This document shows positions 28,531 through 51,814 of a stretch of 64,000 nucleotides of DNA, one piece after another. The number at the start of each line of letters is the position of its first letter. Within the stretch, counting starts at the first letter, position 1. This DNA is from Candidatus Syntropharchaeum caldarium. GTDB lineage: Archaea; Halobacteriota; Syntropharchaeia; Syntropharchaeales; Syntropharchaeaceae. The stretch spans positions 39,777 to 103,776 of the forward strand of contig LYOS01000002.1 of assembly GCA_001766815.1 (NCBI GenBank), read 5' to 3'. The notes under the pieces were generated by a model. The model did not search any database and was not told where the DNA came from. It saw only the letters and a list, made by a program, of their open reading frames with translations. A program made the position numbers and the translations under genes.

Positions 28531-29577
28531 ATGAATTCCAGAACGATTAGATTACTCACACTTCAGATCATCATCGTCTCACTTCTAATTCCAATAATAG
28601 CGGCAGCCCAGCCTGTAATTGAGATCAACTACTTCTATGGCAAAGACTGCCCACACTGCCAGGCTCTCAATCCCATAATCGATGAGATCGAAGCTGATCA
28701 TCCCAACCTGGTAATTCACCGCTATGAAGTCTATTATAATGACACAAACTACGAGATATTCGATGAGTTTCGAGATCGTTATGGGATAAAAGTCGGGGGT
28801 GTGCCGGTAATTTTCTTCAACGATACATACCTCTCAGGCGATATCACAAAAGAAGAGATTGAACGCGAGATCGCGCGGATAGAGGCAGGTGAAACGGACA
28901 AAACGCCTGAATCAAAGGTTTCAATCCCTTTTCTGATTATTTCAGGTATTGTAAATGGTCTGATCAACCTCTGCACATTCGCTGTCTTCATACTTCTTTT
29001 AACATCACTTCTCATCCTCAATGACCGGCGAAAGATAATTATAATCGGGATTACATTCATCATTGCAGTTTATCTGACCTATCTACTCGTTGGAGTCGGT
29101 CTGATAAACACATTCCTCTTTGCAGGCACAGAGCGGTATATAAGAAGTGCTGTAATCATCATAGCGCTTCTGGCAGGGGTTATAAACATAAGAGACTTTT
29201 TCACAGGCGAATCAACGCTTGCAATTCCCAAATTTGCAAAACCAGGGATCAAACGGATGATCGAGTACGCTTCACTCCCCACAGCAGGGGTGCTTGGTGT
29301 GTTTGCAACACTTGTCGGACTTCCCTGCACGGTTGGTGTCTATCTGCCAGTTCTGACTGCACTCTCTGCTGAGCCACCACTTCAGGCAATTCTCTACCTC
29401 CTGTTTTATAATATCATCTATATCTTACCATTATTTGGGATAATCGCACTCGTTTACTTTGGTACAGACCCTGAGGAACTCGATGAGATGAGAGAAAGTA
29501 AAAAAAGATATGTCAGACTCTTTGGAGGTATTGTGATACTTTCAATCGGAATATTGATGCTTATAGGGGTTATATAG
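28531..29577 (+). CDS. thioredoxin-like (CPHC) domain fused to a CcdA/DsbD-family thiol-disulfide transporter
   Basis: Signal/anchor, 'YFYGKDCPHCQAL', then 6 TM with membrane Cys residues 'LINLCTFAVF' and 'GLPCTVGVYLP'. Confidence 0.7.
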   Translation: MNSRTIRLLTLQIIIVSLLIPIIAAAQPVIEINYFYGKDCPHCQALNPIIDEIEADHPNLVIHRYEVYYNDTNYEIFDEFRDRYGIKVGGVPVIFFNDTYLSGDITKEEIEREIARIEAGETDKTPESKVSIPFLIISGIVNGLINLCTFAVFILLLTSLLILNDRRKIIIIGITFIIAVYLTYLLVGVGLINTFLFAGTERYIRSAVIIIALLAGVINIRDFFTGESTLAIPKFAKPGIKRMIEYASLPTAGVLGVFATLVGLPCTVGVYLPVLTALSAEPPLQAILYLLFYNIIYILPLFGIIALVYFGTDPEELDEMRESKKRYVRLFGGIVILSIGILMLIGVI

Positions 29578-29586
29578 GATGGAAAA

Positions 29587-29843
29587 ATGATCTTCGATTT
29601 TCACATGGAAACCTTTAGAAGAGAGGTTTTTGAAAGTGAAGAGATTATGGAAACTTTTGTTGCAGAAGGGGTAGTGTAATGAAGTTCCCAAAAGATGCAT
29701 AGGCGAAAGGTCATAAAAATGGGACTAAAACTCCTTTAACCATGCCTAACCATGATAGGATAAAAGGTTCGAGACTGAGAGTTATTTGCAGGCAATCAGG
29801 TATAAAGTGGGAGGAGTTTTTAAAAGCTTATGAAGAAACATGA
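29587..29843 (+). pseudogene. decayed HicA/YcfA-like toxin gene (frameshift plus in-frame TAG)
   Basis: Frame a (29587-29679): 'MIFDFHMETFRREVFESEEIMETFVAEGVV*'. Frame b (29679-29843): 'MKFPKDA*AKGHKNGTKTPLTMPNHDRIKGSRLRVICRQSGIKWEEFLKAYEET*'. The C-terminus resembles HicA (..kG(S)H....vP.H...ikkGtLr.Il.qaGi..eeFl). Confidence 0.45.
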
Positions 29844-29850
29844 GCAACTT

Positions 29851-29945
29851 CGCATAACAGCGTGTATCTGGCTCCGTGCCTTAGGCACTCCGCTCAAATT
29901 CCACCTGCGGGAACTTCGGATACACTCGGAACGTTATATGAAATT
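29851..29945 (+). repeat. structured intergenic repeat, copy A
   Basis: CGCATAACAGCGTGTATCTGGCT...CTTCGGATAC...CGTTATATGAAAT. Termini CATAAC/GTTAT are inverted; internal hairpin GTGCC-TTA-GGCAC. Confidence 0.5.
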
Positions 29946-30045
29946 GAAAAGGGGGCTTTGGCTTTTTTAGTGGTTGATGTTTGGCTTATTGCTTATAGCA
30001 AGTATTTTATAGCAATTGCTACACAATGTATAGCAGGCGATATAG

Positions 30046-30345
30046 ATGACAACACAGATAAATGTCAAGTTAGAAGAACAGTTGCTTAGAGAAGTTGATG
30101 CTTTAACTAAAGTATTGCACATTTCCCGAAGCGAATGGCTCAGGAATAAAATCGCGTACGCTGTGAAAGAAGAAGCACTTCATCTTAGAGAAGCTATTGT
30201 GATGGAATATGCAAGAGGGCATATCACTGAGGAAGAACTTGAGGAGTTGTTAGGTGCTGATGCAGAGGATGTTGAATATATTTTAAGGAAGGTCCAGGAG
30301 GGGAAGGGCAGGGTTGATGAGATGTTGAAGAAGTGTAACATATGA
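30046..30345 (+). CDS. ribbon-helix-helix (CopG/VapB-like) antitoxin
   Basis: 'TQINVKLEEQLLREVDALTKVLHISRSEWLRNKIAYAV' fits RHH beta-strand plus two helices. ATGA overlap with the downstream PIN-like gene. Confidence 0.6.
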   Translation: MTTQINVKLEEQLLREVDALTKVLHISRSEWLRNKIAYAVKEEALHLREAIVMEYARGHITEEELEELLGADAEDVEYILRKVQEGKGRVDEMLKKCNI

Positions 30346-30809
30346 AGGTGACCTTTGGATTCGATACATCTGCTTTGGTATCATTAGGACATACAGGTTT
30401 AGTAGAGGAGATAGTTAATACATGTAACATCGTTGTCACGGAAAGTATCTTGGATGAATTATACGACATAGGGAATTGGGGTGACCTAGATGCTAAATCA
30501 GCCAAAATGTGGTTAAAATGCTTAGGAGATTTAGATGTAAGATATTCTGAAAGACGAGAAAACGCAGAAGACGAGTTATTTATCATTTGCAACCAGGAAG
30601 GTATACCTATAGTGATTGATGACATTAAAGCATTTAAGAGGTTTGATGGCCTGATTGAGTGCTTATTCAGCGTTCATATAGTGTATTTCTTATACAAGAG
30701 CAACAAGATTACTCGGGAGAGTGCCTTGCTTTCTATTGAAAAGATGAGGGTAGAAAGAGATTGGAAAAGAAACATAATAGCGCTTACTGGGTGGATACTC
30801 TTTGAGTAA
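30342..30809 (+). CDS. PIN-like domain protein (putative VapC-type toxin)
   Basis: N-terminal 'FGFDTSALVSL', 'ILDEL', 'IPIVIDDIKAF' supply candidate acidic PIN residues. Confidence 0.5.
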   Translation: MKVTFGFDTSALVSLGHTGLVEEIVNTCNIVVTESILDELYDIGNWGDLDAKSAKMWLKCLGDLDVRYSERRENAEDELFIICNQEGIPIVIDDIKAFKRFDGLIECLFSVHIVYFLYKSNKITRESALLSIEKMRVERDWKRNIIALTGWILFE

Positions 30810-30810
30810 T

Positions 30811-30935
30811 CATAACCCGCTCAAGCCAAAGCCATTTCCCCTTTCAACTCTGCGGAAACCTTCGGTTTCCTCGCCTTCGCTACGCTACGCCCAAATTGCC
30901 CTCGGGAACTTCTTTTATCCGCAATCCGTTATGCG
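30811..30935 (+). repeat. structured intergenic repeat, copy C (longest)
   Basis: CATAACCCGCTC...GGAAACCTTCGGTTTCC (perfect hairpin)...GCCCAAATTGCCCTCGGGAACTTC...CCGTTATG. It shares the termini and the CAAATT..CGGGAACTTC block with copy A. Confidence 0.5.
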
Positions 30936-31001
30936 CCATCGGCTTTAGAGGCCCAAGGCAAAAGTATTTTTATGTTGGGTAATCAAAGAGGTGATTGAGA
31001 G

Positions 31002-31370
31002 ATGTCGAATATCATCGAGTGGTATATAGCGGTCATAGTTGCTTTTCCTACCATCCTCATGCTTGCAGATGCGTATATTGGGTATAAAAAGGGTGGAAGT
31101 GCCCTTAAGGGAATATCCGGTTTTCGCAGAGCCATCATAGCTCTTACTGTAATTTTAATCCTTGGCATAGCCGTCTTTCACCTACTTGTCAATGATACTG
31201 ATTCTAACTCCAGAGCAGTGGTCAACAACATTCTGAGCATGCTTGCAGGACTCGTTTCTGCCATCGCTGGATTTTACTTCGGAGGTAGATTTACAGAAAA
31301 GAGAGCTGAAGATGCGGAGAGAAGGGCGAAAGGGGTTGAAGAAAGAGCAAGGAAAGCTGAGGAAGAGTAG
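31002..31370 (+). CDS. small membrane protein with charged C-terminal tail, function unknown
   Basis: GAGGTG 7 nt upstream. Three hydrophobic segments, then 'EKRAEDAERRAKGVEERARKAEEE'. Confidence 0.4.
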   Translation: MSNIIEWYIAVIVAFPTILMLADAYIGYKKGGSALKGISGFRRAIIALTVILILGIAVFHLLVNDTDSNSRAVVNNILSMLAGLVSAIAGFYFGGRFTEKRAEDAERRAKGVEERARKAEEE

Positions 31371-31385
31371 AAATGTTTCGTTGAC

Positions 31386-31455
31386 GCGTATAACAGCGTC
31401 TATCTGGCTTTGGCTTACGCTTTCGGATACCCCGCCGCCCGTTATATGAAATGCG
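31386..31455 (+). repeat. structured intergenic repeat, copy B (short)
   Basis: CGTATAACAGCGTCTATCTGGCTTTGGCTTACGCTTTCGGATACCCCGCCGCCCGTTATATGAAATG. It shares ATAACAGCGT.TATCTGGCT, TTCGGATAC and CGTTATATGAAAT with copy A. Confidence 0.5.
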
Positions 31456-31491
31456 AACGAGCCAAATGAAATGTTATTAAAGGTTTAAATC

Positions 31492-31683
31492 ATGAATATG
31501 AGAAAAAGTGAAATAATCGTCCTGGGGATAATTCTTTTCTCCTTCATCGTTGGTATTTATTTTTATCCTCAGATGCCAGAGCAGATGGCATCGCACTGGA
31601 ATGCTCAGGGACAGATGGATGGATATATGTCAAAATTCTGGGGATTGTTCCTGATGCCGCTGATCTCTGTGGCACTATTTTAA
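31492..31683 (+). pseudogene. N-terminal fragment of a DUF1648/SdpI-like membrane protein
   Basis: 63 aa: 'YFYPQMPEQMASHWNAQGQMDGYMSKFWGLFLMP' matches the DUF1648 start (P..iP.HWn..G..dgy.sk). The ORF stops after about 1.5 TM segments, whereas family members are several-fold longer. Confidence 0.45.
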
Positions 31684-31741
31684 TATCGTACTACCAAGAC
31701 TTAAATCTATCCTGAATTAACTAATTCCTCAGGAGAGAAGG

Positions 31742-32293
31742 ATGATTGCTGTTGTGATGGCAGGCGGTAAAGCTACAAGGCTTGGATGTGTGGAAAAACC
31801 AATGGTTAAGCTTGGAGGCATTCCACTTATAGACCATGTCATGCGCCCGCTCATTGAACTGGATATTGAGACCATTGTTGCTGTATCGAAGAATACACAG
31901 GATACGACCGTCTACTGTCAGCGATCAAATTATGAGGTCGTGATGACATCGGGAAATGATTACCACGAGGATCTATTCCATCTCACAGAACAGTTCGGTG
32001 CGATCCTTACGATTGTATCAGATATCCCTTTCCTGACTCCTGCTCACATCAAGGCGATTTTAAAGGCAGATCGAATGAGAGATTCTGTTGTTGGATGCAC
32101 GATGGTGCATGATGTGATCACGCCTTTTGGACTCAACATCGTTGATGGAACCACGGATCGCTATCTGCTTTTTGATGATTATTATGTCGGTATCAATATC
32201 AACTCACAGGAAGATCTTGATCTTGCAGAAAAGATTTCTGGAGAGGTAGATTACAACCGCACGGTTGGATCAAAGCTTCTTGAGAAGATTTAA
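31742..32293 (+). CDS. cobY: adenosylcobinamide-phosphate guanylyltransferase (archaeal CobY-like NTP transferase)
   Basis: 'AVVMAGGKATRLGCVEKPMVKLGGIPLIDHV' matches the CobY N-terminus. About 180 aa. Confidence 0.65.
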   Translation: MIAVVMAGGKATRLGCVEKPMVKLGGIPLIDHVMRPLIELDIETIVAVSKNTQDTTVYCQRSNYEVVMTSGNDYHEDLFHLTEQFGAILTIVSDIPFLTPAHIKAILKADRMRDSVVGCTMVHDVITPFGLNIVDGTTDRYLLFDDYYVGININSQEDLDLAEKISGEVDYNRTVGSKLLEKI

Positions 32294-34443: not shown

Positions 34444-34609
34444 GCCTGCATCACGTCTACTCTTTCATTTCCATCTATTTATATGAACCTTTCTATTTTT
34501 CAACTTCCCCCCTTCTTACCAGAACCCCACAGCAAAAACTGCTACGATCCAGGCAGAGCCTCCAAACCCTGGCGTTCTCTGCTGCTATAACTCATGAGAA
34601 CATCGAGAT

Positions 34610-43579: not shown

Positions 43580-46500
43580 ATGAATGAAGGAATGAAAAAG
43601 GTCAAAATCTTTATTCTCGTATTGCTTATGATCGCATCACCGTTTTCGATGCTTACTGCAGGTGCTGCTATCGATGGCTCAAAGCATGACTTCACGTTTG
43701 AGAGTGAACTTACGCCAAATGGTGCGTGTTCCGCCTGCCATGAGTGGCGTACCATGACGTGGGCACGAAACCTGAGTGAAGAGGAGGCTTATTTTAACCA
43801 GACAGAAGATCCAAACTACGTCCATGATCCTACCATAAAATGCTATGACTGTCACAGTGGCACTGCGGCAGACAATGATCCCAGTTACACGCTTTTTATC
43901 AATACAACACTTGGCAGATATATCCCGCAGGACGTTGCCTTTGATGCCAATATGAAGGGAAACGATCTATCCTATGACAGCTCACCCTCTGATGATGAGA
44001 CCGGATACTACGAGTCATCGACATCAGGCCACTACATAAAGACGAACGCAACAGGCCTGACGAATATTGAACCTGGTGATAAGCTCCCATGCACCGACTG
44101 TCATGAACCACACGAGACAGAACCCACAAATGAGGTCTTCATAAAAGGAAGCTCCGAATATCCACTTGGTGGAAAGGTTGTATCAAACTTAAAAGCAAGC
44201 ACAAACACCCGATCTGGTACTGGCACTGGACGTGAGATCTGTGCGGTATGTCATGGATACAGCGATTCAGGCATAGCTGTCAGGTTTGTTGATGTTAATC
44301 CCCTCTATGGCTCGACCGATAGGATCGTTCAGACCCCGTCAACGGTATCCCAGCATGCAGAGAATGATTCAACACCATGCACAGACTGCCACTCACATAG
44401 CACCCCGGCATCGTATTTTGTCGGAATCAGCAGCCACAACACCCACTTAACCGCCGAGTTTGGACCCAAAATATCCTCGTGCACAGGTGCCGATGGCTGT
44501 CACAGTGAGGGAAACTTCAGCCGCTTCAACGACAACCTCACACTCTCAGCGACTCATGCCTGCGATAACTGCCACAGCCCGAATGGAACATACAATGGTG
44601 TCACCCTTGCCAAGGCAAGCTGGGAAGAAGGCGTCTACAACGGCACAGACTTAAAATCAAGCAAGGAGAAGTGGTGTGCAAGCTGTCATGATAAAGAACC
44701 TGCCAGCTCTATGGGGAATGGAAGCGGTATAAACGCCCCGAATATCGTCGGGATGAATCTAAGCGGTAGCTGGCAGAGCCCCGTCGCTATTATAACAAAT
44801 CAGACGGAAAACGTCAGTGATGCAACAAACCTGCTGGATGGTGACGTTGAGACCGGTGCGAGTGTGAGTGGGGCATCCCAGATCGTCTTTGATCTTGGAG
44901 AGAGTACAGAAGTCTCCCATATCAGGCTTTACACATCTGCCAGTTCCACGGTCAAGTGGGAGGTGTACGGGAGCAATGATCTTTCAAACTGGACGAGAAT
45001 ACTCTATGGTCAGGATGTGATCTTTTCCGCTCCTGCATGGCTTACAGGTGAAGATGAGGGATGGGATGAGAGCAGGGTTGACAGGATCATACCTGTGAGA
45101 TACATCAAGCTCTACAAGAGGAGTCCGTGGCCCGTGGGGAGTGGTTCTCAGCGTGAGTTTGAGTATAAAGCAGATATACGGTATGGATACTATACCACCG
45201 GTCACAAGATTGCCTGCACCAACTGCCACAATAGAAGTAGCGCGCATATCGATGGAACCTCACAGACCTACAACACAACCCTTGATAACTATCAGACAGG
45301 TTTCAGGCTGAAATATCTTGAGGTTGAGAATGAAACCGTCCCCTCACTTGAGATACCAAGAGTCGACTGTAACTGGGGTGATTATCCAAAAACCTCAAAC
45401 GACTTTGCACTCTGTTTCTCATGCCACAACAAGTATAACCTCCTCGGGGATGCGAGTGGTACAGGCGACTACCATAAGGATCCACCCCAGACAAACTTCA
45501 GGAACAACACCACAAACGCCCACCTCATCCATCTGCAGGGAAGGGGATACTGTGGAAACAATCCTGACTGGGACTCAGACTGGAACGGCACAGCAGACTC
45601 ACCACAGAGTTGCACCGCGTGTCACAATGTTCATGGCTCTCCTGCTCCTGCGATGACAAGACACGGAGAACTTGTGAGTATCAACGATACCCTTGAGAAG
45701 GCTCCCCTCCTGAACCTGAAGTACATAAACGCAGACGGAGAGCTTGATCATAATCTCTCAGATGCCACCCAGAGTATCGGCGGAAGGACACAGTTCTATG
45801 GTGCAGGACCCGGAAACGTTGCGAAGAATAAGGTGTGTAACATGTGCCACAATGATCAGATTACCTATTATCGCACACCAGTACCTCCCACCGTAACCTG
45901 TGGTAATGGATCAGGAACAGGAGGCTGCCACAGCCCCACCGCATACTCTTCCTCTGCAGCAGGCAGCCACAATACTCATCTAACCGCACCCAGGGGACCA
46001 AACATAACATCCTGCACAGGTGCTGATGGCTGCCACAAAGGCAACCACACCGGTCTCTTCAACGATGGTTTACCGCTATCAACAACCCACAGATGTGATA
46101 ACTGCCACAGCCCGAACGGGACATACGATGGTGTGAATGACTCCACAATCGGAGCAAAACCCAACTGGGAAAATGGAGTGTACAACAATTCCACGACATT
46201 AAAGTCAGGCAAAGAGAAGTGGTGTGCAGGATGCCATGATGACGAACCGGCGTATAGTAAGGCAGAGTACAGCGAGGTCATCGTGGATAACACCGAAGCT
46301 TCTTTTGCTGGTTCATGGAGTACATCCTCTCACTCAACCGATTATGGAAGCAACTACAGATACAATGGTGCAGGTTCAGGCACTGAAACAGCAACGTGGA
46401 CACCTAACCTGCCAGAATCTGGTAATTACTCGGTCTATGCATGGTGGCCCATATATGTTTCAGGAAGAGCAACGAATGCACCGTACACCGTGTACTACAG

Positions 46501-49500
46501 CAGCGGGTCTGAGACGGTAAGGGTGAACCATAAAGCAGGAGGGGGTGGCTGGAACTACATCGGCACATGGAACTTCTCTGCTGGAACATCAGGTTACGTT
46601 GTGCTCAGTGATGATGCCGATGGAATTGTAATGGCTGATGCCATCAGATTTGTTAAAGGCGGGAATGCCACGTACGCACCCAATATCATCGGTGATAATA
46701 CAAGCTATGGGTTCTATGCAACAGGTCATGGTCGAAGCGGTGTTGTGGATTGCCTGTCCTGTCATGATTCAGATAAAACCCATATCGATGGAATTCAGCG
46801 AACGTATGAAGCAAATGAGACAACAGGTGATGCGATCACACCCTACAATAACAGCTACCGTTTAAAGGATCTTGATGGGTTGCCAGCGATGGTAATGCCA
46901 AGAAAAACAACATCCACATTTAATATGCAGGCCTACTGGCGGGATTTTAACCTCTGTTTTGACTGTCACAACAGGTTTGAGGTGCTGGGTGAAACATCAT
47001 CGGATATCAGTAACACCAACTTCTGGAATAATGATTCAAGTATCTCAAACTCACACTGGCTCCATCTCGGGATAGATAGCAAGCACTTTGACTCTGATTA
47101 TGACAGTTCTGCAGACTCACGTGAGAGCTGCATCGCATGCCACAACGTACACGGTTCGCCAACAGGACCGATGATAAGACATGGAGAACTTATAAGCTAT
47201 CCAAGTACAGCGAACAAGGAGCCTGCGCATAATTTCTACTATCTTCTCCCTGGAGATGGTTCAGCCACTGCCAGGTTTACACCCACACTTGCAGGCGGAA
47301 CATATGATATCTATGCATGGTGGAGCTCGCACTCAAACCGTGCGACAAATGCAAAGTATATAATATACCATGATGGTGGTAGCGCTGAGGTAATCGTCAA
47401 TCAGGAGGAGAACGGCTCACAGTGGAACCTCCTTGGCGAGTACAATATTACAACTTCAAACGGCACGGTCGTTCTGACATCAGATGGCGCCAACGAGTAC
47501 ATCATGGCAGACGGAATCCAGTGGAACAGAACAGATGGCGGAGATACTGTCTATGTTGATGAACCTGATGCCACCTATACTGGAAGCTGGACTGTGGAGA
47601 CCTCAAACCCAGACAAATATTACGGAGATAGCACGAGATACTACTATGCACCCATCAGGAATGCGACTGCAAACGTGAATAAGAGTACTGGCGGCACCTT
47701 CTATGTAAGCGGTGTAATCACTGCAAATCATCTCTGTCAGATGTGTCATAGCAACGTCCAGTACAACAGAGACCCGTATACCGGACCAAGAGTTCCATAC
47801 AGTGATGCAACCCCTGATAACATCTCAAACTTTGAGAGTAACACTGTAACATTCACGGCTTTCGTTACCGATGTGGATGAGAACATAGCAAATGTTACCA
47901 TCGATCTCTCAAGTTTTGGTGGTAACGTTAGCCAGAGGATGTACGATGACGGAACCCACGGTGATACCAAGGCAAATGATGGTGTGTATAGCTACCAGTT
48001 CACAGTGCCTGCAGGTGTTGATGATGGTCCAAGGAGTATCACAGTCACCGCAACAGACGATGATGGTAATAGCGGTGAAGGTCTGATCGATCTTACCGTC
48101 TATCAGCCAGGCGCACTGATCATCGATGATGAAGATGCAAGCTTCACCGGAACATGGGGAGAATCCACGGCAGACGAGACGACGTATGGAACAGGATACC
48201 GCTGGCATGCTTCAGGCACCGGGAGCAATACAGCAACGTGGAGTGTCAACATCACAACCGCCGGTAACTACACCGTCTACGCACGATGGGTTACAGGAAG
48301 CAACCGTGCTACAGATGCACCCTACACGATTAACTATGAAGGAGGCAACGAAACAGTAAGGGTTTCACAGCGGATAAAAGGAGGAAAGTGGAACCGTCTT
48401 GGCAACTACTACTTTGACGTCGGCGAGTACTCGGTCGTTCTCACAGATGATGCTGATAACTACGTTATAGCTGATGCGATAAAGCTTGAATCTGAAGCCC
48501 CTCCAGCTTACCACCCATGGCCAATCGCCGACAATCCCGATGCTGAATACAACGGAACAGGATGGTATACTGGAACAGCCGATAGCGGTTATTATGGCTC
48601 AGACTTCTACTACCATGCCTCAGGCACAGGAGAAAATACCGCAACATGGACACTCGCAGTTCCAGAAGCTGGAAAGTACGATGTGTACGCATGGTGGGCA
48701 GACGGCTCAAACCGTGCAACCAATGCACCCTATATGATTAACTACGAAGGAGGCAGTGAAACAGTAAGGGTTTCACAGAAAATAAATGGAGGAAAGTGGA
48801 ACCTGCTTGGGACATATTCATTCAATGCAGGTAACTATTCAATAGTACTCAGTGACGATGCAGATGGATTCATCATTGCCGATGCAGTGAAGTTTGAGCT
48901 TAACCAATCTGTATGGCTCACCCCTTCCTCAATCCAGTGCACAAACCTCACCAACGCTTCACTCCTGATCGATAACAGCACATCAACTGCCAACGCGCTT
49001 GATACCGGAGATGAACAGTATGTGGTCTTTGATCTTGGTGCAAGATACACCGTTCCATCGATCAAGATGTACACTGATGGTAGCGGCAACTACACATGGG
49101 ATGTCTATATGGGGGATAACATATCTGATCCTGCCTGTTGCAACCATTCAAGCTGGGGCACGCCTGTCCTTGAGAACTGGACTCCCTCTACTTCGGGGTG
49201 GAACGAGGTCAACCTGACAACACCCGCCACAGCGAGATACATAAAGCTCATGCGAAACGATACAGGTGATGATCTTGCCGCAGACAGCCTCTATGAGTTC
49301 ATGTTCGACCCACCAACGGCAACGCTCACCTTTGAACTCCACTCATACGCTGATATGCATATCTATGACCCGGAGGATCGCCATCTCGGGATGAACTACA
49401 CGACAGGCGAGATCGAGAACCAAATTCCCGGAGCAGTATATGACTTCGGTGATGTCCAGACTGCTACCCTGCCAAAGCTTGCAGTGGGGGAGTACAGGGT

Positions 49501-50482
49501 GATACTCAAAGGAACGGGGACAGGTGGATATGAACTGACCGTCACGGGCGAGGATGATGATGGTGTACTCACCAGTGAGACCGTTGCTGGAAATATCACA
49601 GCAGGTGAGATCCATGATGCAACCGCAGCGGTTAACACCACAGACATCACAAACATCACGATAGCACTCGAAGATGAGCCAGAGCCAACGATCAATGCAG
49701 ACGGAGTTGATAATGTCACACTCGCTGATCTCTATCCTGATATCGATGAGGTTGATATCGACCCCCTCGATCCTGAGACGATCGATACCACAGGGATGCC
49801 AGATATTGCCATTCACACCGCCTACATGGTCAACGCCTCAGGAGATGGTGAGTACACACTGAGGTTTGAGGATGTGGAGAACGCTGAGCTTATCACTGCA
49901 GTCTATAAGATCAATGAAGAGGGTGAATGGATCGAGCTTCCAGCAGTGATCAATGGATCGAGAGTTGAGGTTACGATGGAAGCAGGTGATCCACCGGTTA
50001 TTTTTGCATATCCAGCACCAGAAACACCGACTACAGATGACACAAACACCGCATCAACAGGTGGTAGTGGTGGTGGGGGCGGCGGAGGTGCAGGCCCGAA
50101 GGACTCAGATGGTGATGGTGTACCCGATCGTCAGGAGCAGCTTGATGGGACAGATCCTCTCAACCCTGATACAGATCATGATGGACTGAACGACTTTGAG
50201 GAGCGTGTGGCAGGAACAGACCCGAACAATCCTGATACCGATGGTGACGGAATAATCGATGGTGAAGATCCGGATCCAGCGATTATGAACTTCACACAGA
50301 AGGTGAAGAAGACCTTCTCTGATATTTCAGATACCATCTTTAGATCGGGTTCAGAGAATGCGCCGGTACCATCTTCAGAGAGCGGTGCAGAAGAGAAGAC
50401 GCCAGGGTTTGGAAGCTTTGCCTGGATCGTAGCAGTTCTTGCTATGGGGTATCTGGTAAGAAGGGAAAAAGTTGAAAAATAG
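43580..50482 (+). CDS. giant secreted multihaem c-type cytochrome with discoidin-like and golvesin-C-like domains, TSP3 repeats and PGF-CTERM anchor
   Basis: GGGGGG 6 nt upstream and a signal peptide. 17 CxxCH, 2x CTGADGCH and 1x [11 protein letters not shown], all within about the first 1390 aa. Poly-Gly linker, 'DSDGDGVPD...DTDHDGLND...[14 protein letters not shown]', and terminal '[27 protein letters not shown]'. Confidence 0.9.
48134..48900 (+). repeat. tandem duplication (period 408 nt) inside the giant cytochrome gene
   Basis: AACCGTGC at 48302 recurs at 48710. The GAAACAGTAAGGGTTTCACAG...GGAGGAAAGTGGAAC block is nearly identical in both units. Each unit encodes one about 136-aa golvesin-C-like domain. 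Confidence 0.8.
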
Positions 50483-50503
50483 AAAAGGCTGGATTCACTT
50501 AAA

Positions 50504-51814
50504 TTAAAATATCTGCTGTGGAGGAGTGTTAGCTCCTCCCGGTGTTGTATTCTCAAAGATTGCAAAGTCGTTGCTATCAACGTCTGTATCCATGCCATCG
50601 GGGTATCTGCCTGCAGACGCACCATCTTCTGGTGCCTCAGCATTGTCTGAAACGTCGCCATCATCGAAGTCACCGTATGTAACTCTATCGATCACATTCC
50701 CGCCATTTTTCAGGATGATGGTATCTCCGCCATTGTTGAGTCCGAACGAGAAATCAGTGGACTTGTTCAGCAGCAAGAACCCATTTGCAGGTATTGTTTT
50801 TCCGTTTAGACTTGCAGGTGAAGCAGTGTTATCCTCGATCGTCCAGTCATCAAGCGAAATATCCTCGTCCATCAGGTTGTAGAGTTCGATCCATTCTGAA
50901 TCACCTGGTAAAGGATCTGAAAGAAACTCATTCACAACAACCTTCGGGACAGCATCACCCGCTTCGATCGTAAATGTCCCATCAACCACCCTATGTGTGA
51001 TCTCATCCACACCGTCTGTGAGTGATATAACCGTAAGATCGAGTGGGCTTGTGTCACCAATAGCCCCAACTGCTTCAAAGGTAATCTGAGCAAAGACCAC
51101 ATCGCCTGTAAGGCTCGTTGGGAAGTTGAGGGCTGTGTACTGGATAGATCCAGCGCTGTTGTTGATATCTCTATATAGCGGGAAGTTGAACTCGCCATCG
51201 GCAACATCAAGCACCTGCACGACATCTGGGTCGAAGTTCAGGATGATGTTTGCTCCCAGTCCCTGGTAGAGGTTCTCGATCATGATCGGAACTGTGGTAG
51301 TCTCACCTGCTTCACAGCTTAGATTCTCTATCGATACGATCGTATCAAGCACGGTAAATGTCCCGTCAACCACTGTATGCGTGATCTCATCCATGCCGTC
51401 TGTGAGTGATGTAACCGTAAGATCGAGCGGGCTTGTGTCACCACCCTCACCAACTGCCTCAAAAGTTACCTCTGCAAAGACCACATCGCCTGTAAGGCTC
51501 GTTGGGAAGTTGAATGCCGCGTACTGCACATATCCTGCCTCATTATCGATCTGGCTATAAACCGGGAAGTTGAAATCACTTCCATCTATATCAAGCACCT
51601 GCACGACATCTGGGTCGAAGTTCAGGATGATATTTGCTCCCAGTCCGCCATCAAGATTCTTGATTATGATTGGAACGGTCACACTCTCGCCTTTGCCAGC
51701 AGCCACATCCTCGATCGAGATGACCGTCTCTTCGTTTGCAGCTGCTGTAATTACAAGAGCTGATGCTACAATGAGTATGGCAACCACAGATGCAGCCAGT
51801 TTATGCCTCATCAT
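50504..51814 (-). CDS. secreted protein with two cohesin domains and a lamin-tail (LTD) domain
   Basis: Signal peptide. Two 128-aa units 'GE..TVPI.I.NL..GLGANIILNFDPDVVQVLD...LTGDVVFA..TFEAVG..GDTSPLDLTV.SLTDG.DEITH.VVDGTFT'. Then 'VVVNEFLSDP..DSEWIELYN...ISLDDWTIED....GGDTIILKNGGNVIDRVTYG'. Confidence 0.75.
   Translation of the reverse strand: MMRHKLAASVVAILIVASALVITAAANEETVISIEDVAAGKGESVTVPIIIKNLDGGLGANIILNFDPDVVQVLDIDGSDFNFPVYSQIDNEAGYVQYAAFNFPTSLTGDVVFAEVTFEAVGEGGDTSPLDLTVTSLTDGMDEITHTVVDGTFTVLDTIVSIENLSCEAGETTTVPIMIENLYQGLGANIILNFDPDVVQVLDVADGEFNFPLYRDINNSAGSIQYTALNFPTSLTGDVVFAQITFEAVGAIGDTSPLDLTVISLTDGVDEITHRVVDGTFTIEAGDAVPKVVVNEFLSDPLPGDSEWIELYNLMDEDISLDDWTIEDNTASPASLNGKTIPANGFLLLNKSTDFSFGLNNGGDTIILKNGGNVIDRVTYGDFDDGDVSDNAEAPEDGASAGRYPDGMDTDVDSNDFAIFENTTPGGANTPPQQIF
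50960..51727 (-). repeat. tandem duplication (period 384 nt) = the two cohesin modules
   Basis: CCGTAAGATCGAG at 51031 recurs at 51415. Long near-identical nucleotide stretches occur in both units. Confidence 0.8.

Follow-up and report, generated by a model that had tools for sequence, protein, structure and literature searches.

The window, a 64-kb stretch of DNA from Ca. Syntrophoarchaeum caldarius, holds three related structured sequences, A, C and B in that order, which lie on the + strand and outside real genes, just where the first-pass annotation had placed them. A + strand ORF ends 1-20 nt before each of them, and together the three sequences divide a run of small genes into units that we describe as cassettes. 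GC content is down to 0.40-0.42 across 29-31 kb. A leave-one-out covariance model of 41 elements, from which the window was excluded (R3), finds no copies elsewhere in the 64 kb.

The content of the cassettes is of a typical kind, with a HicA remnant, a ribbon-helix-helix (RHH) gene and its partner gene, and a gene for a small membrane protein. Cassette 1 contains the HicA toxin remnant (29679-29844, + strand), of which the C-terminal half alone is recognisable (Pfam HicA_toxin, E 0.0056, profile positions 28-58 only) and which carries an in-frame TAG; no left border of this cassette, whether attI or an upstream R' box, was found. Cassette 2 (29934-30928, + strand) holds the RHH gene (30046-30345; RHH_1, E 8e-5) and, overlapping it by 4 nt, a gene for a 155-aa protein (30342-30809). 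Judged from sequence, the two appear to form a pair of toxin-antitoxin-like kind. The partner matches no Pfam family; it seems PIN-like by eye (FDTSALV), and we withhold that label because Pfam support is absent. Terminal inverted repeats flank this cassette (29944-29964 and 30823-30847), with a score of 26 against a shuffle mean of 13 that was reached in 1 of 500 shuffles. Cassette 3 (30929-31441, + strand) encodes a 122-aa membrane protein (31002-31370), and the last unit (31442-31741, + strand) carries a truncated DUF1648 gene (31492-31683, 63 aa, E 4e-22). No site separates this unit from the core MobA-like gene at 31742, as neither R3 nor the family covariance model R1 described below has a match downstream. 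Gene callers also place a 75-aa ORF (29862-30089) over A, which has no Pfam match and is probably spurious.

Homology to two relatives (86% and 77% identical) stops at 29585 and 29576, just past the stop codon of a 348-aa gene. The genes that follow differ in both relatives, and the array stretch has no counterpart in these nearest relatives; no empty site was found, the region past the 348-aa gene being rearranged differently in each. This 348-aa ORF, which lies beside tRNA-Met, was considered as an integrase and is a thioredoxin-like membrane protein. Its product matches a Ca. S. caldarius protein encoded on a 410-kb contig at 100% identity, which places the array in an archaeal host. A GTTATAT at 29569-29575 was likewise considered as the left recombination junction or a secondary insertion site, and was rejected as the native end of the 348-aa gene because relatives lacking the array end the gene alike and stay homologous for 8 nt beyond its stop. 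When the proteins of the cassette genes were looked up by exact match, only two short Logan contigs, with the same array, were returned. A tblastn search of the 64-kb window revealed no tyrosine recombinase, and so nothing shows the array to be active.

Anatomy of the three sites

Site A (29847-29949, + strand) is an intact member of its family, scoring 91.3 bits with R1 and 83.8 bits with R3 (E 1e-14, whole window, filters off). It consists of an R'' box, GCATAAC (29852-29858), the stem P1 (29860-29870 paired with 29917-29927), the hairpin P2 (29876-29888), the hairpin P3 (29896-29902 paired with 29910-29916) with the A.C mismatch of the family, a 3' spacer GGAAC (29928-29932), and an R' box, GTTATAT (29933-29939), followed by GAAAT (29940-29944). 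P2 is the GTGCC-TTA-GGCAC hairpin that had been picked out at first reading.

Site B (31383-31457, + strand; R1 22.4 bits, E 0.004) is a deletion derivative and a borderline match to R3 (21.8 bits, E 0.05, window). It keeps an R'' box, GTATAAC (31388-31394), the 5' strand of P1, and an R' box, GTTATAT (31441-31447), followed by GAAAT (31448-31452), while P2 and P3 are absent and the 3' strand of P1 is damaged. Its ends are near-identical to those of A. The likeness between A and B reported earlier holds well, as the shared motifs are collinear, in the same order and far above chance. One of them, ATAACAGCGT[G/C]TATCTGGCT, agrees at 19 of 20 bases between A (29854-29873) and B (31390-31409), with a BLAST E value of 0.013 for a search of the 64-kb window; the others are TTCGGATAC and CGTTATATGAAAT, the latter identical in the two copies (29932-29944 in A and 31440-31452 in B). 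The 10-mer GGCTTTGGCTT does recur, twice in the forward sense (29954 and 31406) and once as its reverse complement (30823).

Site C (30810-30934, + strand) is degenerate or composite. It opens with TCATAAC (30810-30816) directly after a stop codon and continues with an inverted-repeat arm (30823-30847) and the GGAAACC-TTC-GGTTTCC hairpin noted previously (30854-30870). The family core TTCGCTACGCTACGCCCAAATT (30876-30897) and a P3-like AAATTGCC...GGGAACTT follow, and the site ends in an R' box, GTTATGC (30928-30934). The 22-nt core is identical to that of two family members (L013 and L019), with chance matches in 0 of 100 shuffles. P1 complementarity is gone from C, and its true R'' may be either 30810-30816 or GGAAAC at 30854-30859, neither register restoring P1. 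With R1, C yields a local match of no more than 6.7 bits (E 2.4), and as a whole it went undetected in the R3 search of the window. The description of C as a third copy holds in part, for the core and the GTTATGC end, which are family sequence, and not for the rearranged 5' half; the fixed-spacing motif proposed for A and C fails as an exact fit to both because of an indel.

Two further elements of the initial description need to be set aside. The CTTCGG/TTTCGG 'cores' of the three copies are not homologous, since they form a two-stem junction in A and B and a hairpin loop in C, and UUCG-type hairpins are not a defining trait of the site family. When A, B and C are folded singly, their stability is no better than that of shuffled sequence (z -0.8 to +0.6). 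These single-copy folds give no signal; support for the structure of the sites comes from comparison with relatives alone. The array looks like a decaying relic, given that the sites have decayed (A alone is complete, B lacks P2 and P3, and C lacks P1), that two cassette genes are truncated or pseudogenes, and that no recombinase lies within 64 kb.

A folded site family in bacteria and archaea

The proposal that these sequences are a family of small structured elements is borne out by relatives in other genomes that share a covarying fold. The 20-mer of A occurs at 63 loci in GTDB genomes, compared with about 4 estimated by chance. Most of these loci are in Patescibacteria, with others in Asgard archaea and Methanosarcinaceae; overall, the 20-mer recurs in Patescibacteria, Chloroflexota, Omnitrophota, Asgard archaea and Methanosarcinales-related archaea, and viral contigs gave no exact match. 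Covariance model R1 collects 149 elements at E<0.001 (169 at E<=0.1) from 54 loci, none of which has elements on mixed strands (0/54). Elements are spaced at a median of 881 bp, and of the 94 intervals between them, 82 have a longest ORF that runs in the same direction as the elements, the ORFs being small. A full-text literature search returned no description of the site family, which is absence of evidence only.

Sites of the family are 73-217 nt long. Their 5' part comprises R'' (ACATC-RY-ATAAC), one A, the 11-bp stem P1, the optional hairpin P2 and CGCCCAWAT, and their 3' part comprises P3 with its conserved A.C mismatch, the 3' strand of P1, RAAC and R' (GTTA-nnn-GAAAT), with GTTAGGC and GTTAGAT among the R' boxes. 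The common fold, with ATAAC/GTTA termini, an 11-bp stem and a three-way junction, is supported by covariation among 141 elements: 89.9% of the cells are paired, as opposed to 35-42% when partners are slid, and compensatory changes occur in 25 of 28 pairs. AAC and GTT are nearly invariant, and the three AAC:GTT pairs are formed in 135, 134 and 120 of 137 elements. P1 is continuous over 11 bp, since insert columns inside it are filled in at most 7 of the 141 elements, and the spacers are equally regular, at 1 nt on the 5' side in 139 of 141 elements and 4 nt on the 3' side in 118 of 141. Stem G.T and A.C counts (72 versus 82) reveal no strand bias. Read on the bottom strand, the conserved A.C mismatch becomes G.T, a suggestive hint, and only that, of bottom-strand folding.

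The arrays carry the signature of cassette exchange at their junctions. Of the 3 positions in its R'' triplet, an element complements on average 2.09 in the R' triplet of the element before it, compared with 1.32 in its own R' and 1.23 in the R' that comes next downstream (0 of 10000 in a permutation test). This complementarity between a 5' triplet and the upstream 3' triplet is the cassette-exchange signature of integrons, in which the crossover falls inside R' of an attC site and the bases after GTT pair with the downstream cassette's own R''. Within the window, 8 of 9 positions at the start of cassette 3, TTATGCGC, are complementary to the R'' sequence GCGTATAAC of the cassette's own site, B, an observation that is not decisive alone with only three sites present.

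Relation to integrons and to Xer-like recombinases

The site family is large and attC-like, with a non-canonical architecture. Its sites lie at the 3' ends of short co-oriented ORFs in same-strand arrays (3 of 3 in the window, and in the family), each an imperfect palindrome with conserved ...AAC at its 5' end and GTT... at its 3' end, and the bases that follow GTT(A) are part of the next cassette, all as in integron attC arrays and CALINs (attC clusters without an integrase). The CATAAC/GTTAT termini, initially described as inverted, are the counterparts of the R''/R' core boxes in attC-type sites and not transposon inverted repeats. Both boxes (RYYYAAC and GTTRRRY) are present in A and B, and C has the R' box GTTATGC. 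Position 3 of the family R'' is A rather than Y, as it also is in some validated archaeal attCs, and GCATAAC and GTATAAC resemble the R'' of archaeal attCs recombined by IntI1 (Data S9 of PMC9668308). Archaeal CALINs are known, and archaeal integron examples are mostly integrase-less clusters (Ghaly et al. 2022, PMC9668308). To count as a CALIN, a cluster needs two or more sites, spaced by less than 4 kb and away from any integrase; A, C and B, if accepted as attC-type, form one within 1.6 kb.

The inner architecture departs from that of canonical attC sites. L''/L' extrahelical bases (G and T on the bottom strand), for which both bulges are clear in the canonical set, are absent from the continuous 11-bp P1 of the family. 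The central spacer between the R and L boxes, unpaired and about 5 versus 5-6 nt long in canonical sites, is here 1 nt versus 4 nt. The variable part of attC gives way to a conserved three-way junction, an invariant A.C mismatch and a conserved CGCCCAWAT, R' is followed by a conserved GAAAT, and primary sequence is kept across phyla and domains. A canonical attC covariance model (R2, nine archaeal attCs plus attCaadA7), which is small and only moderately sensitive, scored two attCs of the R46 control at 62 and 41 bits and was marginal for its two oxa2 attCs (13 and 12 bits, E 1.9 and 2.9). With default filters, R2 retrieved no family element at E<=10; with filters off, its only match overlapping an element (L058, 3265-3382) scored 8.0 bits (E 9.9). 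Its scores on A (4.2 bits) and B (7.7 bits) are due to the R boxes alone.

Complete arrays elsewhere resemble integrons in being headed by a divergent tyrosine recombinase and an attI-like junction and in having toxin-antitoxin genes among their cassettes. A divergent tyrosine recombinase adjoins the array in 12 family loci, with 10 full-length ORFs of 268-289 aa and two fragments (L032 and L056). The distance between the recombinase start codon and the first element is 0.43-0.93 kb at 11 of these loci and 2.3 kb at the twelfth (L006), and most of the 12 have an attI-like junction resembling GTTAnnnGAAAT, 42-131 nt from the start codon. Among four recombinase loci picked by protein similarity alone, elements occur on the divergent side in all four and are adjacent in three.

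On sequence comparison, these recombinases appear closest to XerA and to integron integrases, without the IntI-specific domain. Their best NCBIfam match is XerA (NF040815, 190-241 bits), whose cut-off is reached by 6 of 9. Nine recombinases were scanned with the integron integrase profile TIGR02249; they stay below its cut-off of 265, at 188-230 bits split between two stretches, and score lower still on XerC and XerD. When the L061 recombinase is aligned with IntI1, a 47-residue gap falls opposite IntI1 193-246. An adjacent IntI with its specific domain, as found in complete integrons, was seen neither in the window nor in the 12 recombinase loci, where the enzyme is instead about 270 aa long and lacks that domain, and no canonical IntI was present in any fetched family locus. 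In Patescibacteria they belong to a very large, conserved family (6841 proteins at E<1e-40), whose members have housekeeping-gene surroundings. The 'Cand' subgroup of Xer-related tyrosine recombinases (Smyshlyaev et al. 2021, PMC8138268), likewise short, Xer-like and from candidate phyla, is probably this same family. The paper suggests that class-specific simple recombinases may stand in for Xer, and its passages on the subgroup link neither cassette arrays nor folded sites to it.

The nearest parallels among known systems each match only part of this picture. The arrays recall sedentary chromosomal integrons with homogeneous long attC sites, such as the Vibrio cholerae repeats, where the integrase has the IntI domain: they are chromosomal, have sites longer than 100 nt and mutually similar, and carry toxin-antitoxin and small unknown ORF cassettes. 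However, Vibrio site sequence is conserved within the genus, whereas the family 20-mer is shared by several bacterial and archaeal phyla. Xer-exploiting elements (IMEX elements, Acinetobacter pdif modules and the CTX phage, whose attP(+) folds from single-stranded DNA) similarly have modules bounded by recombination sites and a short Xer-like recombinase without accessory domains.

Competing explanations and consequences

We consider it likely that A, C and B are attC-type sites ending successive cassettes of a small integron-like chromosomal array in Ca. Syntrophoarchaeum caldarius, at which recombination would have taken place; with no integrase nearby, the array is of CALIN type. Among the options originally listed, a recombination site is the one favoured by the same-strand arrays after ORFs, the adjacent recombinase in relatives and the cassette-junction signature. 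By this mechanism, a single DNA strand would fold and bring R'' to R', and a tyrosine recombinase would cut within GTT(A), leaving whatever follows this core to travel with the next cassette. Cassettes would leave as circles and re-enter at the attI-like site beside the recombinase gene, with the short recombinase presumably serving as the cognate enzyme.

Going further, we tentatively suggest, as a possibility somewhat short of an even chance, that these arrays represent an unrecognised class of integron-like platform. Such a class would combine a short IntI/XerA-related recombinase lacking the IntI-specific domain with folded sites lacking extrahelical bases; it would be common in Patescibacteria, and cassettes or sites would have crossed into Asgard and methanogen-related archaea. 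In known integrases the IntI-specific domain contacts the extrahelical bases, and the lack of the one would accord with the lack of the other. The place of the extrahelical bases would be taken in this class by a centre that is paired, a bulge of 3 nt and the conserved three-way junction.

Two alternatives retain recombination but assign it to other enzymes. Rather unlikely, in our estimation, is that the cassettes are Xer/dif-type modules of the IMEX or pdif kind, which exploit the chromosome-dimer resolvase of the host and pile up at a dif-like site beside xer without a dedicated integron. The XerA match and the very large, conserved Patescibacteria recombinase family amid housekeeping genes would fit this, as might R' plus GAAAT, which resembles a Xer-binding arm, and the CTX phage provides a precedent for a folded single strand as Xer substrate. 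However, no 28-bp dif-like duplex (two 11-bp arms and a 6-8-bp centre) is visible in the linear sequence at the cassette junctions on inspection of the sites. The sites are instead much longer folded elements with attC-type AAC/GTT cores and cassette-type exchange, they belong to an integron-type platform of divergent recombinase and attI-like junction, and the recombinases score lower on the XerC and XerD profiles than on that of integron integrases. Less likely still is that these are ordinary attCs, that a canonical IntI from some other place in the genome serves them, and that the short recombinase is incidental. The R boxes do fit canonical cores, the arrays, ORF orientation and junction signature match integrons, and CALINs have precedent in archaea, but the canonical attC model fails on the family, the L-box stem and spacers are not canonical, and the array-adjacent recombinases are of the short type in 12 of 12 loci.

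The alternatives that dispense with site-specific recombination fare worse. If the fold served RNA, the sites would be sRNA genes or 3'-UTR or terminator elements of upstream genes, and both the strong covariation and the position of every copy just downstream of a co-oriented ORF would suit RNA as well as DNA. Yet Rfam matched only tRNA-Met in the whole window and nothing below E 0.5 in the array region and four family loci, with no match to the sites at any threshold; B and C have lost stems while keeping their terminal boxes, and the adjacent recombinase, the attI-like junction and the triplet complementarity would go unexplained. Thus, the suggestion of an sRNA gene family, which context also fails to support, probably does not hold for A, B and C, and an RNA role is very improbable, even though the sites could still be transcribed within cassette mRNAs. 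Hardly credible is the remaining suggestion of MITE-like non-autonomous transposons with short terminal inverted repeats. Small size, inverted ATAAC/GTTAT termini and multiple copies are what prompt it, but no target-site duplication flanks A, B or C, every array keeps strictly to one orientation with regular spacing after ORF stop codons and never takes the form of dispersed insertions, only three copies exist in 64 kb, and the search of viral contigs for the family 20-mer found none.

If the sites are attC-type, a puzzling repeat in a butane-oxidising archaeon is explained as the scar of horizontal gene capture. The occurrence of the same site family in candidate-phyla bacteria and Asgard archaea would tie this archaeon to a cross-domain gene-exchange network. 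The consequences of a distinct platform class would be broader. How integron integrases came to use single-strand recombination is an open question, and the accepted view links this ability to the extrahelical attC bases together with the IntI-specific domain. A system that is widespread in nature and bears the cassette-exchange signature with neither feature would make that question directly testable, and its route to single-strand cassette recombination could be ancestral or parallel. Such platforms would presumably escape standard integron finders, and surveys that rely on the IntI domain and the canonical attC model would undercount cassette platforms, especially in candidate phyla. The conserved cassette 'frames' around varied ORFs could, under the same proposal of a new platform class, also bear on cassette genesis.

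Three repeat copies and their setting

The repeat finding is real. The three forward-strand stretches proposed by the first-pass annotation, at 29851-29945 (copy A), 30811-30935 (copy C) and 31386-31455 (copy B), are present as described, as are the hairpins and the recurring GGCTTTGGCTT. A and B agree at 19 of 20 positions of a common 20-mer (BLAST E 0.013 in the window), and also share TTCGGATAC and the exact 13-mer CGTTATATGAAAT in conserved order. The case for C as a third copy holds in part: it has the ATAAC/GTTAT ends and a CAAATT...GGGAACTTC segment in common with A, but its overall similarity is far lower. The window by itself does not confirm that the copies are structured, since single DNA folds do not exceed shuffled sequence in stability (z -0.8 to +0.6), although relatives have a covarying fold.

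R3, a covariance model of 41 family members from other genomes with the window left out, was applied to the whole 64 kb without filters. A scored 83.8 bits (E 1e-14) and B 21.8 bits (E 0.05); nothing else was reported, and C as a whole was not found. B keeps both ends and has lost its hairpins P2 and P3. The core of C, TTCGCTACGCTACGCCCAAATT, is identical to that of two members, L013 from Pelolinea and L019 from Sifarchaeum, and shuffled sequences gave no chance match; C also retains a GTTATGC end. By these scores and remnants, A is an intact member of the family and B and C are decayed ones.

Each copy begins 1-20 nt past the stop codon of a forward-strand ORF: a HicA toxin remnant (29679-29844) before A, a ribbon-helix-helix gene overlapping a 155-aa partner gene before C, and a 122-aa membrane protein before B. 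A truncated DUF1648 gene follows B. GC content drops to 0.40-0.42 at the array versus 0.45-0.49 around it, and the flanks carry archaeal core genes (HMG-CoA reductase, geranylgeranyl reductase, tRNA-Met). A neighbouring 348-aa protein is 100% identical to a Ca. Syntrophoarchaeum caldarius protein on a 410-kb contig, and the array is reproduced on two Logan contigs (runs SRR3669912 and SRR3679449). Because homology to 86% and 77% identical relatives ends at 29585 and 29576, directly past the 348-aa gene, where other genes come next, the 2.1-kb array stretch is lineage-specific.

The HicA-like frame has an in-frame TAG (MKFPKDA*AKGHK...), is missing the N-terminal half of its domain and is probably a pseudogene. 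Gene calls on the Logan contigs include a 75-aa ORF (29862-30089) that overlaps site A; it has no family match and is probably an artefact to which the site gave rise. The cassette between A and C retains terminal inverted repeats, as do many Patescibacteria cassettes. No recombinase was found within the 64 kb, two of the three sites are degenerate, the HicA gene is pseudogenised and the DUF1648 gene is truncated; on these grounds we see the array as a probable relic.

In Ca. Syntrophoarchaeum sp. WYZ-LMO15, a MobA-like gene (L068 10439-11023) with 61% amino-acid identity to its counterpart at window 31742-32293 lies 1.4 kb from the orthologue of the 348-aa gene, but on the opposite strand. 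The locus downstream of the 348-aa gene has been repeatedly rearranged within the genus.

A site family with a conserved fold and a recombinase

The array itself is modest; its interest lies in the site family that it exposes. Exact matches to the 20-mer ATAACAGCGTNTATCTGGCT occur in 63 stretches of GTDB genomes (about 4 estimated by chance), the majority Patescibacteria, with others labelled Gammaproteobacteria, Omnitrophota, Pelolinea, Heimdallarchaeota, Sifarchaeum and Methanosarcinaceae. Their flanks give an element that reads ACATC-RY-ATAAC / A / GCGTRTATCTG / GCT / (hairpin P2), followed by CGCCCAWAT- hairpin P3 / CAGATAYACGC / RAAC / GTTA-nnn-GAAAT. Trained on 15 short members, the covariance model R1 gave 169 matches at E<=0.1 across the 433 kb of 20-mer loci, 149 of them at E<0.001 and spread over 54 loci. 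The latter are 73-217 nt long, have a median spacing of 881 bp and fall on both strands in none of the 54 loci. In 82 of 94 intervals between adjacent elements, the longest ORF points the same way as the elements; it stops a median of 48 nt ahead of the next one.

Among 141 aligned elements, of which the majority do not contain the exact 20-mer, the proportion of pair cells that form is 89.9%, versus 35-42% with partners slid, and compensatory changes occur at 25 of 28 pairs. Fitting the alignment to the model biases it towards structure, but the margin is nonetheless large. The AAC/GTT pairs and the spacers (1 nt on one side versus 4 nt on the other) are nearly invariant, and the inner stem is continuous. 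The third pair of P3 is an A.C mismatch in 129 of the 141 elements (29898 and 29914 in the window). This mismatch would be G.T on the opposite strand, and the junction sequence CGCCCAWAT beside it is nearly invariant.

With an IntI1 query confirmed to match annotated intI1 at 100% identity, homologues were found in 12 of the 63 loci within the 8 kb searched per locus, 11 of them at 27-34% identity (E 1e-37 to 1e-20) and the twelfth, a truncated fragment in L056, at 25% (E 4e-6). The recombinase gene is divergent from the array in all 12, and its start codon lies 0.43-0.93 kb from the first element in 11; in L006 (3349-5690) the two are separated by about 2 kb that contains a large transposase-like ORF and resembles an insertion sequence that has entered the array head. 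Most recombinase loci have an attI-like junction (for example ...AAACGA-GTTATGTGAAAT-AGCC) at a distance of 42-131 nt from the start codon, and no full element precedes it. In four loci chosen by recombinase similarity alone rather than by DNA motif, elements lie on the divergent side in all four and are adjacent in three.

Ten full-length recombinase ORFs encode 268-289 aa. The best NCBIfam match of nine scanned was NF040815 (XerA-type, 'site-specific tyrosine recombinase/integron integrase'), at 190-241 bits against a cut-off of 220. The integron integrase model TIGR02249 gave them 188-230 bits in two separate stretches, short of its cut-off of 265 but above their XerC and XerD scores. This recombinase family is very large (6841 proteins at E<1e-40); most of its members are unnamed or carry an XerD or integrase annotation.

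A signature of cassette exchange and the relation to canonical integrons

In the 5' core box (R''), the variable triplet ahead of TAAC complements the variable triplet after GTTA in the 3' box (R') of the upstream element at a mean of 2.09 of 3 positions, and fully in 38 of 85 cases. Against the element's own 3' triplet the mean is 1.32, against the downstream element's 1.23, and by random pairing 1.3 (permutation test, 0 of 10000). Such complementarity is what integron cassette exchange predicts, since crossover in the GTT(A) core makes every cassette begin with the partner of its own R''. The data show a conserved fold joining R'' to R', arrays, and cassette-type exchange at the core, as well as, in genomes other than that of the window, a recombinase with attI-like adjacency. 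By analogy with integron biology (PMC9668308; PMC4792948), one DNA strand would fold, the recombinase would bind the R-box and P1 stem duplexes and cleave in GTT, and replication would resolve the product. The strand-marking role of extrahelical bases might pass to the 3-nt bulge and three-way junction.

The window array is best explained as a cassette array in decay that lacks an integrase, with sites that are members of a widespread attC-like family of non-canonical type. Archaeal integrons are known, mostly as clusters of attC sites lacking an integrase, Methanosarcinales included (PMC9668308), and a canonical integron with its IntI encoded elsewhere is one alternative, which we consider unlikely. 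A canonical attC model of nine archaeal attCs (Ghaly et al., Data S9, PMC9668308) plus attCaadA7, in whose alignment both extrahelical bases and the 5-6-nt spacers are clearly visible, found the aadA1 and orfD attCs of the R46 control at 62 and 41 bits and the two oxa2 attCs weakly (13 and 12 bits). It reported no family element with default filters, and with filters off only insignificant scores for A (4.2 bits), B (7.7 bits) and one L058 element (8.0 bits, E 9.9). Whereas canonical attCs have two extrahelical bases and 5-6-nt spacers, the family has an inner stem without bulges and spacers of 1 and 4 nt; whereas IntI1 has an IntI-specific domain (the 193-246 region), the L061 recombinase has a 47-residue gap opposite it in BLASTP. 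By these comparisons the system is integron-like in its working, yet it falls short on three defining features of canonical attC/IntI membership.

Xer/dif-type modules seem a doubtful but not negligible alternative, one that overlaps our reading since the point at issue is which enzyme family serves the sites. Among Xer-related recombinases, Smyshlyaev et al. (PMC8138268) distinguish a 'Cand' subgroup found in candidate phyla; the passages of that paper that were consulted link no arrays to it. That the copies represent a structured RNA is very unlikely, the covarying fold notwithstanding, and a MITE with inverted ends is barely credible. Full-text literature searches on integrons in Patescibacteria or candidate phyla, XerA with attC, and integron-like arrays turned up no account of the site family, which is not proof of novelty.

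Cassette frames and other repeats

In five Patescibacteria loci (L005, L018, L023, L030 and L061), unrelated ORFs occupy a single conserved cassette frame that is bounded by terminal inverted repeats of about 70 nt; the frame starts with TTATGTGAAAT-AGCCAGAAATTTCT...TTGGCAATTTATT and ends with AATAAATTGCCAAAA...AGAAATTTCTGGCT-ACATCACATAAC. A 210-nt long variant of the site, highly conserved in sequence across lineages, follows. A conserved frame around differing ORFs may bear on how cassettes are generated.

Elsewhere in the window, 34490-34580 and 50394-50485 form an inverted repeat of about 96 nt (pairs I1 and I2; 87-89% complementary, arms 15.8 kb apart) that could mark an invertible or mobile segment. 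Between the arms are paralogous segments resembling, by eye, ABC-transporter ATPase and CxxCH multihaem cytochrome genes. Several diverged direct repeats of 74-84% identity (D1, D2, D5, D6 and D14) in a CxxCH-rich region, at 44460-47000, 48300-48900 and 50970-51650, are apparently paralogous multihaem cytochrome segments.
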